Positions 30,043-47,056 of a DNA stretch of 59,034 nucleotides are shown here, piece by piece. The stretch lies in the NCBI GenBank assembly GCA_977020255.1, contig CDROCS010002078.1, positions 66,967 through 126,000 on the forward strand, read 5' to 3'. The position numbers and the translations under genes were made by a program. The notes under the pieces were generated by a model. That model was not told the DNA's origin, searched no databases, and saw only the letters and a list, made by a program, of their open reading frames with translations. Source of the DNA: Obrimoposthia wandeli. Its lineage: Eukaryota. Each line of letters starts with the position of its first letter. Within the stretch, counting starts at the first letter, position 1.

Positions 30043-30132
30043 AGTAGGTGGATGTGTCCGGTCTAATCCACCCCCCCCTACTGTCCTTTAAAACCGTGTA
30101 GGTGTGTGGAGTGAAATTTCGTGTATGTGTGT
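30043..30132 (+). repeat. Left terminal inverted repeat (90 bp)
   Basis: Outer 29 bp identical to the reverse complement of the right end; C-tract length difference and 4 mismatches further in. Confidence 0.95.
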
Positions 30133-30433
30133 CTCCATTCTACCCAAAGGGGGGAAGGAAGGGGTACCCCCCAACCATATTTGTTAAATTTTTACCACGA
30201 ATCTCAAAAGTGGTTAGAGAAGACCACGAGAATCCATATTGACCCCGACGGCTTTTCGCAGACGAGATTTCAAATATTACTACTATTTTTAAGAAAGATT
30301 TTAGATTAATAAATTACTACATGTTAAATATCTATATCAGTTTTAGAATTTAGAGGAGAAAAAACGGTCAGATCTATATAATTTAGAGGAGAAAAAACAA
30401 AATACGAGACAAAATTATTTTTCAAAATATTTA

Positions 30434-30838
30434 TTAAACATAAAACAACATATTGGCTCCACTCAAAGTCCAGAGAGGCTGCATTTTCCCGTCATCAGCA
30501 AAATATCCATTGAGACGTATTGAGATATTCCATAGTTCTTCATCTAGAATTGGAGCAATCAAATATCCTAGATCATCTTTAAAATCCAGACAGGGATCAG
30601 TTTCAAGCTGGAAACAATTTCCTTCATATACATAATCAGGAATGTAAAATCCCAAAATATTTTTCAGTTGATCAATATCAGTTGTTGTTAAAATTTCGAT
30701 GAGATATTTTTTCTCACCTTTTGATATTTTCACAGGATTCATAACTCGTATAATTTGATGCCTCTTTAATATATTACATAGTTTTCCTTTTGAAATTCTT
30801 TCTGGATAATAAAAATTTGCTACACATCTCTTATCCAT
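30434..30838 (-). CDS. Polinton hypothetical protein, paralog 2 (possible OB-fold ssDNA-binding protein)
   Basis: Start placed at MDKRC (30838), 37 bp after TATAAACA; shares NPVxI, FxDDxG and WxxxIRLxGYxxDxGxxxPxW with ORF 30972-31448. Confidence 0.75.
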   Translation of the reverse strand: MDKRCVANFYYPERISKGKLCNILKRHQIIRVMNPVKISKGEKKYLIEILTTTDIDQLKNILGFYIPDYVYEGNCFQLETDPCLDFKDDLGYLIAPILDEELWNISIRLNGYFADDGKMQPLWTLSGANMLFYV

Positions 30839-30971
30839 TCTAAAATAAGGAAACTGATTAAAAACAATGTTTATAAAAAATACACATAAGATACAAATAA
30901 GATGCAAATAAAACTGATTATTAAATGAAAGAAACATAGTAAAACCGATTACAATTTATTACACACAAAAG

Positions 30972-31448
30972 TTAAAACATAGAAATATGAGCACGTTCAA
31001 TTTTCCACATAGGCAACTTTGTTCCCATTTCATCTTTCTTGTAACCATAAAGTCGAATTGTTACAGTCCATTGCTTCTTTTTCGGAAACGCATCAATATC
31101 AACATATCTTCCATAGTCATCTAGAAATGCTTCATCGGCTTCTCGGATATAAAATTCGTTCTTATTGAAAGTAAAATTCGGAACTGCCTTTTCTATTTTC
31201 TGTTTAAGATATTGAAAATCAGGTTTTTGAATACCTGATAGATAGTAGCTGAACTTTCTTCTTTCAATTATCACAGGATTTACTAAAGCAATCAGTTGAG
31301 CCTTCTTCAAGAATCTGACTTTGTATTTGAAATATTGTTTCACTTCTTCATACATATCCTTATCCGATTCTTCAAACATTTCTTCGTCATCGCTTAATAC
31401 ACGTTGGCTATCATCCATTGTTGATAATTGTCTTTGATATGAATGCAT
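30972..31448 (-). CDS. Polinton hypothetical protein, paralog 1, acidic N-terminus (possible OB-fold ssDNA-binding protein)
   Basis: 158-aa ORF; TATAAAAG at 31486-31479; co-linear similarity to the neighbouring ORF. Confidence 0.8.
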   Translation of the reverse strand: MHSYQRQLSTMDDSQRVLSDDEEMFEESDKDMYEEVKQYFKYKVRFLKKAQLIALVNPVIIERRKFSYYLSGIQKPDFQYLKQKIEKAVPNFTFNKNEFYIREADEAFLDDYGRYVDIDAFPKKKQWTVTIRLYGYKKDEMGTKLPMWKIERAHISMF

Positions 31449-31457
31449 TTACTGTGA

Positions 31458-31666
31458 TTTGTCCTCCAATGGCGCATTCTTTTATACTAATTTCTAACAA
31501 AGACATGAATCTCATTGGTTAATATAACTAAATATTGAATTTGATTGGACTAAATCTATATTAAAAATCAAAATTGATTGGAAGAAATATATCATCCAAT
31601 TATAATAGGTTTGCAAGATAATTACAAGAAACGTGCAATAAAAAAGCAGGTTCAGACATATATAAA
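31458..31666. promoter_or_regulatory. Divergent Pol II-type promoter: two opposed TATA boxes with CCAAT/ATTGG boxes
   Basis: TATAAAAG (minus, 31486-31479); TATATAAA (plus, 31659-31666); CCAAT/ATTGG at about 31466, 31514, 31544, 31577, 31597. Confidence 0.65.
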
Positions 31667-31696
31667 GAAGATTTTACAGAATACAATTTCAGTCTA

Positions 31697-43990: not shown

Positions 43991-46098
43991 CTAATGTTTA
44001 TAAATTATATTTTTGAAAATCCTTACGAAGTCTTCATTGGGATCATCGGGGTCGTATTCCCTCCGACTTATTTTGATAGGAGAAAGCGGTACTGGTTCCT
44101 TCTTCTTTGGCCGGCCCGGTTTCTTTTTCGGCTTCACCGGTTGCTGTACAGCAATTGTCCTTCCCTCAGGTTTTGGCAATAGTTGCCGCAACTTTTTGGG
44201 AGGAGGTGCAGCCGATGTTGATGGCCCCGACATAGAAGCAGTAGCCTTCCTCTTCCGCGGAGCTTTCTTTGGTTTCTCCTCCTTCTCACGCTGAAGCTGG
44301 CGTGAGACGGCATCCTGTTGCCCACGCGAATCTGGAAGCATTGCGGGTGTATCCAGTTCCGCTAGGAATTCGTCCAAACCAGCGTCATCCCAGGCCCTCT
44401 TCAAGTTTTGGCTGGTTGTTGGACGAGGAGAAGCAGTATCCTGCAGGCGTTGTTGACTCGAGTGCAGACTTATCTCGATCGGCGAGACTGGGATCCTCTC
44501 ATATAAGATAGGCCGTCGTCCATTGGAGGAGGGAGAATCTCCTGCTGGCTAATCACCGCCTCAGAATAATGGCCAATTGAGGTTCGAATTTTTCTCGCGC
44601 GCCTCGTCTTCTTCACCTCTGCCCGCTTTGTCCTTTTCTTAGGGAAAGGAGTAACTTCTCCCCAAGTCTCCTCAATTATCCGGACAGGTTCCTGCAAATG
44701 AAAACAATAATAAAATTTCAAATAAAATTTTATTTAAATAAAAAAATATTTAAAATAACAAAAAATTACCTCAATAATCTTAGACGGAAGGTTTTCCTGC
44801 CGCTCAATCGTTACTTCACTCGAATTGAGCAGACAGGATTTTGCCTTTCTAAGACGCCGTGTCTTCCGTACAGTAAGCTGCCTCGTTCGCTTATGCCGGA
44901 AAGGATAACTTTTGGCCCACGTCTCCTCAGTTAATATTATTGGTTCCTGCAACAAAAAAACATTAATAAAATTTAAACATATAAATAATTTACCTCGATG
45001 ACTGGCAGATTAGCCTGTTTCGCCAACTTGGCCTTCTTCCGATGGACCGTATTGGTTTTGATTCGATGACGTCGAGGTTTCCTAACTACCGCTTGCTTCC
45101 TATCGATAGGTAGTCTCCGAGATACCTCCTCCCAAATTTCCTCCACCAACTCAGCTTCCTAAGTGAATAATTAAATAAATTTACTAATTTATAATAATAT
45201 ACCTCAATTTTAGCCGGAGTCGGTAGGTATCTCTGATCACTCCTGGGATCATCCTGGCTACATTGACTCGCCAAGTATTGCGGTTCAATTAGCCTCTCAA
45301 TCGTGGTCACTGACGGTGCCAAATCCAGTTGCAGTTTCTGAAAATAAAATTAAAAAACATTTTAAATAAATGATTTCTAACCTCATTCGTCGCCTTTATT
45401 CTCCTAACAGGACGTATCGGAGATTGTGGCCTTCTGAATGGATCAGGCACTGTAATGTTGGGTATTGGAGTCGGAGTTGTAGAGGGAGTGAGACCATCCC
45501 ATTCGTCAGTGAACAGATCCCACTCATCTTCATCCATTTCTGCAACCATGGACTCGTTGGCTCCTGGGGCTCCGATACTTGGCTGTATCCACTCCTCCTC
45601 CCCATCCGACGGAACGTCATCAGTAAACAGCTCCTCGTCTGAGTCTGGTGCCAGTATTATCTCCGGTTGAGACAGCGGGATCAATTTCCAGGGGCATTTG
45701 ATTGCCGCCTCGAAATTGTCAAAGAGATTGGATCTCCTTGCTGCTACTGCTGAAGTTGCCGGACGATTGGCTTCTGTGTTCAGCCTGGGAGTACAGTCTT
45801 CCCAATTCTCTATCGAATCCTGACTAGTCAGATCGATATATTGGGATCTCTGTACCCCACCTCGCACGCTCATTGGTTCTTCTCTTGGAGTTGAGCTGGC
45901 CAATGGCGGTTCTTCTAGCAACAGTTGGGCTCTTGCTGCTGCTTCTCCTTCGTCTCCTTCACTCACCACCGACGAGTCTTGACTAAGTAAGTCAATGTAC
46001 TGCGCCGGTGGTGGCGTTCGCTGCTGTACTGGAGAGAGATCCCCATACAGCTGAACCTCCGTCTCTTCGTCTAGGTCAACGTTGTTGTAGAATGGCAT
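43991..46098 (-). CDS. Five-exon SIM-rich/acidic plus basic-repeat nuclear protein (exons 45382-46098, 45203-45337, 44994-45158, 44770-44946, 44691 onward); probable frameshift at ~44525
   Basis: Four phase-0 GT-AG introns keep one open frame for 471 aa; QYIDLLSQDS, QYIDLTSQDS; C-terminal KKKPGRPKKK. Confidence 0.8.
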
Positions 46099-46183
46099 TC
46101 TTGCTTCTTGATTAATGATATTTGATTTATGAAAAAATAATGAAAAGAGGTTTCCTTATATACAAAAATAATAGACTAACCCT

Positions 46184-46455
46184 CTTTTGTCGTCCAATGA
46201 GAGCGGGTTAATCAAATAATTTATTTGAAAATCAGTAGGCTTTTCTCATTTTTTAACTATGTTTGAATGCTGGAATGTCATTGGATAAAACATATTTTAT
46301 TCGAAAATATATCACTAAACTTTTGTCCTCCAATGAGGGCTGGTTATTCAAATAATTTATTTGAAAATCAGTAGGCTTTTCTCAATGTTTTAACTATGTT
46401 TGAATGCTGGAATGTCATTGGATAAAACATATTTTATTCGAAAATATAACTATTT
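46184..46455. repeat. Tandem duplication (136-bp unit) containing CCAAT/ATTGG boxes, upstream of the SIM-rich gene
   Basis: CTTTTGTC.TCCAATGA at 46184 and 46320; TATATAAG (minus) at 46162-46155. Confidence 0.9.
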
Positions 46456-46615
46456 TCTTAAGATTTTGTTGTATAAGTTTAACGTCCAATGAAAACGTAT
46501 TATTCAAAGAATTTATGATATTTTCTTAAATTTTGTTAATATTTGGATTTAAAATAGTAATATTTTTTTTGACTGTACATGTTTGGATGGTATAAAAAAT
46601 TCATGAACTCATTTC

Positions 46616-46739
46616 AGGTCAAGTTAAGGTCATGACCTTATGAGGTCATCATCGTGAGGTCAAGGTCATTTAAGGTCATCATGAGGTCAAGGGTACAAAG
46701 TTGTCTAGGTCATCATGAGGTCAAGATCACTTAAGGTCA
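46616..46739. promoter_or_regulatory. Array of 11 AGGTCA/TGACCT half-sites, including an IR0 palindrome and a DR0
   Basis: AGGTCA at 46616, 46627, 46643, 46657, 46663, 46673, 46684, 46707, 46718, 46734; TGACCT at 46633. Confidence 0.7.
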
Positions 46740-46961
46740 TGATGACTAATTTGATGACTCATCAAATAAAAATGCAAATTATTTCGAATTTATGTAGTTG
46801 ATTATTTAAAAAAATTTTGTGACCCTATATATGTATCTTTCTTATAAATTCTTATAAAGAAATTTTTTTATGACCTTGTATATATGTATGGATATAAATT
46901 TTTATAAGGATTTTTTTTTCTTTTTTTGAGTGTTTGGGATGGGGGGGTAGAAAATTTTTCT

Positions 46962-47056
46962 ACACACCTACACGAAATTTCACTCCACACACATGCACGG
47001 TTGTAAAGGACAGTAGGGGGGAGGGGTGTGGATTAGACCGGACACATCCACCTACT
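46962..47056 (-). repeat. Right terminal inverted repeat (95 bp)
   Basis: Reverse complement of the left TIR; ends CCTACT followed by the TSD GCTACC. Confidence 0.95.

Follow-up and report, generated by a model that had tools for sequence, protein, structure and literature searches.

A decayed Polinton in the Obrimoposthia wandeli genome from a lineage with a viral mini-TBP, a TATA-variant box before virion genes and host-type introns

Introduction

Adintoviruses of the Alpha-PolB class combine a pfam03175 DNA polymerase of family B that is primed by a protein (pPolB) with an integrase, an ATPase, an adenain, capsid genes and inverted terminal repeats (PMC8502044). The same set, its capsid genes as putative members, is found in the element studied here, a Polinton/Maverick within a 59,034-nucleotide (nt) stretch of the Obrimoposthia wandeli genome (assembly GCA_977020255.1, contig CDROCS010002078.1, positions 66,967 to 126,000 of the forward strand), which we call the window and whose own numbering is used throughout. 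The adintovirus maps label MAEL, SSDBP and Oncoid genes (Fig. S2, PMC8502044), and single-stranded DNA-binding (SSB) and MAEL genes are thus already on record; the window element, in contrast, has no oncoid with an LxCxE motif. The pairing of an Alpha PolB with a Beta virion module has also been described (PMC8502044). The Mavericks of vertebrates (PMC8097293) and nematodes (10.1101/2022.07.12.499685) have the two-module layout, terminal inverted repeats (TIRs) and 6-bp target-site duplication (TSD) of the window element, but their core genes are described as intronless, whereas the protease gene of the window lineage has a conserved intron.

Two groups of viral TBP homologues invite comparison with the compact TBP-like protein (mini-TBP) of this lineage. 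Late promoters of the TATT type are read in beta- and gamma-herpesviruses by a vTBP whose DNA face is polar (PMC12529657). Its representative in Kaposi's sarcoma-associated herpesvirus, ORF24, is a multi-domain protein of 752 amino acids (aa) that acts within a viral complex and, by prediction, does not bind TFIIB (PMC12529657). The mini-TBP resembles it in the TBP fold, the conserved phenylalanines, the polar DNA face and, if our reading is right, in a non-canonical late box and the use of host RNA polymerase II (Pol II), while differing in its size of about 150 aa and its retained TFIIB stirrup; the two are likened by fold only. The TBP homologues of Nucleocytoviricota likewise lack the regulatory surface of the N-lobe, but their TFIIB signature is reported to have diverged and they are often paired with a viral TFIIB (PMC7221094), whereas the mini-TBP family keeps that signature and no TFIIB gene was recognised in the element.

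For Polintons themselves, the main text of PMC8502044 names TBP once, in the legend of Fig. 5, for MELD viruses with an adintovirus-like PolB, and the accessible supplement text (figures aside) does not name it; nor do the available texts of PMC8097293 and 10.1101/2022.07.12.499685. Introns, promoters and SUMO motifs do not occur in the text seen of PMC8502044 and 10.1101/697771. In a literature search that also covered 10.1101/2025.02.07.637071, 10.64898/2026.06.19.733378, 10.1101/2022.05.25.493380 and PMC12220804, with Repbase, Dfam and most subscription journals beyond its reach, we found among the papers listed no description of a Polinton mini-TBP family with a cognate promoter and no report of spliceosomal introns in Polinton core genes. 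Here we report a genuine, decayed Polinton in the window; its lineage combines a viral mini-TBP with introns of host type and with a conserved variant of the TATA box in front of the virion genes.

Results

A compact TBP family with a predicted remodelled DNA face

The comparison drew on 31 related loci, which form 21 groups at 90% DNA identity, and counts were taken over independent loci. The window gene that a preliminary description, made from the letters alone, had called TBP-like matches PF00352 (E 2.3e-8), and the assignment held at the level of the fold. The intact homologue of locus L005 (148 aa) served for the family search and for judging the fold. As a query it returned 83 homologues among 94 candidates, all of them matching PF00352 and with a median length of 153 aa, which define a family of about 150 aa in 83 clusters. 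A model built on 57 aligned rows (55 of the 83 homologues together with L005 and L019) reached a predicted local distance difference test (pLDDT) score of 96.5 and matched cellular TBP over both lobes (E 2.6e-10, TM 0.78), at a sequence identity of about 20–27%. The two-lobed saddle, intercalating phenylalanines and the C-lobe Glu-x-Glu of TBP are all present in the L005 protein. The TBP profile additionally found two distant loci in viral contigs (32% and 42% identity).

Two features mark the family. First, the C-lobe stirrup, whose glutamates contact TFIIB in cellular TBP (PMC7221094), is kept as [YF]EPE[LI][FY] in 83 of 83 homologues, while the N-lobe of the model consists of strands only. 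The N-lobe surface is where TFIIA, TAF1 and Mot1 bind cellular TBP (PMC7221094), and the model predicts that this surface is missing from the mini-TBP. Second, in a hand-made mapping to cellular TBP with yeast numbering, three of the four intercalating phenylalanines are invariant (F116, F190, F207) and F99 is replaced by proline, and the positions of V71, V122, T124 and L205 are occupied by Asn, Arg, Met and Asn, respectively, in 56–57 of the 57 rows. The N-lobe of TBP faces the 3' half of the TATA box. Together, model and mapping suggest a DNA-binding face that has been remodelled next to a TFIIB-binding stirrup that has been retained. The mini-TBP gene lies upstream of the ATPase gene in three independent loci (L001, L005 and L019); 26 others are too short to judge.

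A TATA-variant box at a fixed distance from virion gene starts

Across independent loci, 40 of the 41 starts belonging to four genes have the sequence YATAAACA on the sense strand in the 80 nt before them, namely those of the putative major capsid protein (MCP; 19/19), the DEDD-like protein (8/8), orf109 (7/7) and the ATPase (6/7), and in 34 of the 40 cases it lies at -33 to -42. As background, TATAAAC is found in 2.4% of 57-nt windows. A protein-coding origin of the motif was rejected, given that only 3 of 85 Ile-Asn pairs in core open reading frames (ORFs) use the codons that spell TATAAAC. A Forkhead-type enhancer is likewise disfavoured: the box is sense-only and keeps its distance, and at the same 41 starts GTAAACA occurs once and antisense ATAAACA twice. 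Penton starts are less regular, with TATAAAC in 7 of 16 rows, and integrase starts have it at -70 to -20 in none of four groups.

In the window, YATAAAC precedes 8 of 16 listed starts at -30 to -45, compared with 1.5% of all ATGs, and YATAAACA is found at -33 to -101 before ten genes. The integrase has its box in common with the small ORF that precedes it, and one transcript may serve to translate both; the protease has no box. The TBP-like gene, the second SSB-like gene, the zinc-finger/polymerase gene, the 70-aa ORF and the gene rich in SUMO-interacting motifs (SIMs) instead have TATAWAWR at -38 to -64, two to five CCAAT boxes and no YATAAACA, a sorting into two promoter classes that was made after the fact. 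Our literature search found no published support for the notion that host TBP disfavours TATAAAC.

Short introns, partly common to relatives

The protease gene opens with an ATG and two further bases, followed by a GT-AG intron. The junction is covered by 18 loci in 13 independent groups, and 10 of the 13 share the position of the intron (nine groups by scan, with the same donor recognised by eye in L002/L003); two groups have no intron and one is unclear. The TBP intron is common to the window copy and L001 and is absent from L005 and L019. Four introns interrupt the SIM gene (45381–45338, 45202–45159, 44993–44947 and 44769–44692); they measure 44–78 nt, are 85–90% AT compared with about 50% in the exons, and are all in phase 0, with every exon open. 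Three more lie in the zinc-finger gene (42456–42410, 41790–41714 and 41672–41630). Judged from their sequences, these appear to be short spliceosomal introns, partly common to relatives, that the host spliceosome would remove. The preliminary description had recognised neither the introns nor the YATAAACA box.

Anatomy, core genes and decay of the window copy

The element occupies positions 30043–47056 (Table 1). It had been described as a complete endogenous polintovirus, and its TIRs, TSD, pPolB, integrase and ATPase bear out the identification. The flanking GCTACC duplication has the 6 bp typical of Polintons/Mavericks, and the TIRs begin with AGTAG, in keeping with their AG/AGT ends; the pair is identical in 86 of 95 columns (about 90%), with four mismatches and two gaps. 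The proposed plus-strand structural block between minus-strand genes is also present, except that the TBP-like gene and orf90 stand at its head.

Table 1. Features of the element and its borders. Positions refer to the window; box distances are relative to gene starts.
Feature	Position	Strand	Remarks
Left TSD, GCTACC	30037..30042	+	
Left TIR, begins AGTAG	30043..30132	+	90 nt
SSB-like paralogue a	30434..30838	-	profile A6 E 1.4e-25; TATAAACA at -37
SSB-like paralogue b, T7 gp2.5/NCLDV (nucleocytoplasmic large DNA virus)-type OB fold	30972..31448	-	TATAAAAG at -38 plus CCAAT boxes
Mini TBP-like gene	31697..32189	+	38-nt intron 31827-31864; breaks near 31941-31968; canonical TATA at -38
orf90, hydrophobic C-terminus	32219..32491	+	TATAAACA at -34
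A32-type packaging ATPase	32529..33164	+	PF04665 E 3e-7; TATAAACA at -34
Short Lys/Arg-rich ORF	33173..33312	+	TATAAACA at -41
orf109, conserved virion-module protein	33344..33673	+	10/31 loci; TATAAACA at -36
Small conserved ORF overlapping integrase start	33702..33920	+	CATAAACA at -33; similar ORFs in 8 loci
RVE integrase with chromodomain	33760..34788	+	PF00665 E 9e-13, chromodomain E 3e-5; frame open
Putative penton (minor capsid), broken	34785..35838	+	CATAAACA at -68
orf119, amphipathic virion-module protein	35816..36194	+	26/31 loci; break near 35880; TATAAACA at -101
Putative MCP, 409 aa, open frame	36191..37420	+	TATAAACA at -42
Adenain-type protease	37422..37802	+	42-nt intron 37427-37468 after fifth coding base
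pPolB with HNH-like insert	38078..41465	-	PF03175 E 1.4e-29
Spliced CCHC+C2H2 zinc-finger gene (earlier 'RING-like')	41466..42465	-	TATATAAG at -48
57-nt repeats with CCAAT boxes, upstream of zinc-finger/polymerase gene	42552..42826		
DEDD-like, possibly MAEL-like protein	42807..43295	-	TATAAACA at -36
70-aa charged helical ORF	43436..43648	-	canonical TATA plus CCAAT
Large spliced disordered SIM gene	43991..46098	-	four introns, all phase 0; exon 1 acidic, with SIMs
137-nt subterminal repeats with CCAAT boxes	46184..46516		
Cluster of 9 AGGTCA half-sites including AGGTCATGACCT palindrome	46616..46739		
Right TIR	46962..47056	-	95 nt
Right TSD, GCTACC	47057..47062	+	

The three replication and packaging genes named above were recognised by their Pfam matches, and the integrase and pPolB also by their D-D-E and catalytic motifs, respectively. 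The window ATPase is four residues shorter than that of L019, next to a conserved motif. The protease, too, was called correctly: its match to Peptidase_C5 is below the cutoff (E 0.015), yet the His, Asp, Gln and Cys motifs of adenain are present. The reading frame of pPolB lacks its own start codon and is preceded by an in-frame stop at 41468–41466; candidate OTU-like Cys and His motifs before the pfam03175 domain were seen by pattern and gave no profile match. At about 40020–40125 the polymerase contains an Endonuclease VII/HNH-like insert (E 6e-5), found likewise in P0301 and P0302; such an insert has been reported in pPolB2 of nematodes and oomycetes (PMC10748475).

Of 2663 candidates, 150 are homologues of the 409-aa MCP candidate, at identities up to about 61% and with no informative name among the 120 matches listed. 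The MCP candidate itself had no Pfam or PDB sequence match, the penton had no Pfam match, and scans of viral contigs with the MCP found no relative. The assignment of both capsid genes is therefore putative and follows from synteny with the 31 related loci, homology to relatives and the usual Polinton layout. Two tandem penton-like genes are seen in relatives (L019, 5610–7687; L020; L021). The Lys/Arg-rich ORF, similar to a basic ORF in L019, is a probable core protein, and orf109 may be PW/GasderminX-like and orf119 PZ/Cupiennin-like, labels that go with the Beta-class virion module.

Completeness holds for the anatomy and not for the coding capacity. The frames of the integrase, the MCP and both SSB-like genes are open, and five genes are broken, namely those of pPolB (frame changes near 38680), penton (frame change within 35015–35128 and a stop in frame at 35596–35598), the TBP-like protein, orf119 and the SIM protein (frame change between 44548 and 44470); the breaks in pPolB, penton and TBP were found with intact relatives as queries. 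As the TIRs have diverged and in-frame stops are present, real decay is indicated, and the copy is a decayed provirus no longer able to run a cycle alone. With its protease intron and these breaks, it differs from intact vertebrate-type Mavericks, which have intronless, unbroken core ORFs. Its decay is ordinary, because 96% of vertebrate Maverick loci are decayed (PMC8097293).

Accessory genes

Among the accessory genes of the preliminary description, the paired SSB-like genes and the SIM-rich gene were borne out. The SSB-like profile has 96 relatives at E <= 0.001, 61 of which were aligned with the two window paralogues and L005. The resulting model (pLDDT 95.2) found its best structural counterparts in T7 gp2.5, Enc34 SSB, DUF2815 and CP312R of African swine fever virus (Z 6.7–7.6, the next at 5.2), with root mean square deviations of 2.9–3.8 over 105–126 aligned residues and 10–14% identity, values of Z that are modest in being below 8. 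Against BFVD the model matched uncharacterised giant-virus proteins (E 3e-6); a Foldseek search of the PDB gave no match at E <= 0.001. Profile searches of PDB sequences with the SSB, finger, DEDD-like and MCP alignments returned nothing significant, and atlas scores of at most 0.82 for the SSB-like and finger proteins serve as leads only. A gp2.5-type OB fold is thus supported for the SSB-like genes at modest Z; here, the two paralogues stand behind different promoter types.

The first exon of the SIM gene is acidic and has two IDL[LT] motifs of the SIM type. Three further exons are basic and mutually similar, to a degree that none of 1000 shuffles reached. SIM-type motifs also occur in L019 and L025, in accessory ORFs that are unrelated to it. 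In the 31 loci, tblastn found no match to the SIM gene, to orf90, to the basic ORF or to the 70-aa ORF.

The gene described as RING-like encodes a different finger. Its ligands run C-C-H-C and then CxxC-H-x2-H, a spacing that is not the C3HC4/C3H2C3 cross-brace, and there is no Pfam RING match, so that the RING identity was rejected in favour of CCHC+C2H2. The gene also has acidic repeats and a Ser/Ala-rich exon, the latter closed by a stop that lies in the frame of the polymerase. If its 41-nt exon (41713–41673) is included, the product ends shortly after that exon; if it is skipped, the finger exon shares the reading frame of the polymerase as far as the stop at 41466. In L008 and L019 this finger forms the beginning of the pPolB ORF, and it is found by itself in L006, L017, L027 and another gene of L008; it goes with the polymerase locus. 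Downstream of the polymerase, L027 (1522–2902) and L006 (2085–3337) have what are probably multi-exon accessory genes, among them a split copy of the zinc finger.

Of the proposed DEDD nuclease only the first motif could be recovered. It reads IDFE in the window and D-[FY]-Q, with Gln in place of the motif Glu, in all four aligned relatives. The gene is conserved in 11 of the 31 loci, with conserved Glu, His and Cys residues, and the protein has no Pfam or PDB match; MAEL is a plausible label for it. A kinship between its profile and that of the finger was considered and rejected, the two being unrelated. Variable genes of the left arm in relatives encode a ubiquitin-conjugating enzyme (L019, 222–722), a dual-specificity phosphatase (L022, 919–1263) and a true RING (L001, 1665–2171).

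The likeness of this gene set to an adenovirus early region stands as a loose analogy, in that a spliced, disordered, SIM-bearing gene lies near the end of the element, behind promoters of host type. It goes no further, since a scan of 28 ORFs and exon pieces found LxCxE, the motif of E1A and Oncoid proteins, only in the integrase and in no accessory protein, and since the RING call fails.

Flanking sequences

The flanks are 24–41% GC and contain remnants of a hAT transposase (17110–18158) and Gypsy-like reverse transcriptase/integrase fragments (56979–59010). Just left of the insertion, ORF 29309–29668 looks by eye like a decayed HSP60 fragment and has no Pfam match. Positions 49469–49650 contain a second Polinton-like left end (AGTAGGTAGATGTG) and, after it, an AGGTCA cluster of its own that is 76% like the right subterminal cluster of the element over 63 nt; an opposite end to match it is absent from the window. 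We take the AGGTCA repeats at 46616–46739 to be nuclear-receptor half-sites.

Discussion

We somewhat favour an early-to-late switch run by the viral mini-TBP as the explanation of these observations; anatomy, breaks, folds, motif distribution and intron positions are computational results, and binding, timing and particles are inferred. Transcription of the lineage, a Polinton/Maverick (adintovirus) of which the window holds a decayed copy, would take place in the nucleus, with host Pol II acting in two steps. In the first, host factors would read the TATA and CCAAT promoters, perhaps aided by the AGGTCA cluster, yielding the SIM-rich regulator, the small helical protein, the zinc-finger/polymerase product, one SSB and the mini-TBP. 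In the second, the mini-TBP would bind YATAAACA through its remodelled DNA face and recruit host TFIIB and Pol II through the Glu-Pro-Glu stirrup, and, lacking the N-lobe helices by which host regulators hold TBP, it would switch on the packaging, capsid and core genes. The short introns would be removed by the host spliceosome, and replication by pPolB and SSB and integration with a 6-bp TSD would follow the standard Polinton model. By analogy, such a strategy is nearer to late transcription in beta- and gamma-herpesviruses than to that in adenoviruses. The wider claim seems to us evenly balanced, namely that a true cascade of early and late transcription operates in a widespread clade of animal Polintons, with a minimal TBP of about 150 aa that was re-engineered for YATAAACA, uses host TFIIB and escapes host regulators, and with genes that depend on host splicing.

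Several observations weigh against the switch. The N-lobe residue mapping was made by hand, and of the 31 partial loci only 3 show TBP linked to the ATPase. The box is present in L022 and L025, but the 2.5 and 1.2 kb, respectively, upstream of their ATPase contain no TBP gene. No TFIIB-like gene was recognised in the element. The first SSB-like gene and the DEDD-like gene carry the supposedly late box. YATAAAC stands before the finger/polymerase ORFs in L008 and L019, at -34 and -48, and no TATA lies within 90 nt of the TBP start in either L005 or L019, so that a clean split into two promoter classes is confined to the window copy, in which it was sorted post hoc. Finally, some of the frame breaks could be assembly errors.

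The best-surviving alternative, which we nevertheless consider unlikely, is that host proteins read YATAAACA, be it a host TBP tolerating the variant box, a TBP paralogue or a Forkhead factor, with the mini-TBP acting as a decoy for TFIIB or blocking host promoters. The TFIIB stirrup is indeed the best-kept part of the mini-TBP, ATAAACA fits the Forkhead consensus (RYAAAYA), and the box before the polymerase in L008 and L019 would also suit a host reader. The strand bias and fixed distance of the box and the rarity of its GTAAACA and antisense forms are, however, unlike an enhancer site, and a decoy would have no need of new invariant polar residues on its DNA face. It is improbable that a co-infecting large DNA virus supplies the transcription machinery that reads the box, with the TBP as one part of a shared complex: virophage promoters do match giant-virus late promoters and the SSB fold is closest to Nucleocytoviricota proteins, but the element has its own TBP gene, and the protease and other genes have spliceosomal introns, which imply transcripts made by Pol II in the nucleus. 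Marginally less probable still is that the TBP-like and spliced accessory genes are host cargo without a role in an element that moves as a transposon: nematode Mavericks do carry intron-containing cargo in a variable region (10.1101/2022.07.12.499685) and the SIM gene has no homologue in the 31 loci, but the TBP family has its own invariant residues at low identity to cellular TBP, lies upstream of the ATPase in three independent loci, and the protease intron sits in a core gene.

The window copy itself is a fossil, and several of its accessory genes were already known. It has long been asked whether animal Polintons make particles and what sets the timing of their capsid genes; with a viral TBP and a late box both defined, the question can be put to the test using one small protein and short fragments of promoters, without a virus. 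The YATAAACA box can serve as a tag for virion genes and gene starts in related elements, and since introns are common to relatives, annotation by ORFs alone misses or miscalls genes in this lineage. If the switch from early to late genes by the mini-TBP is true, it would be the smallest known viral TBP switch, would provide an orthogonal TBP-promoter pair, and would be independent evidence of a virus-like productive cycle in Polintons.

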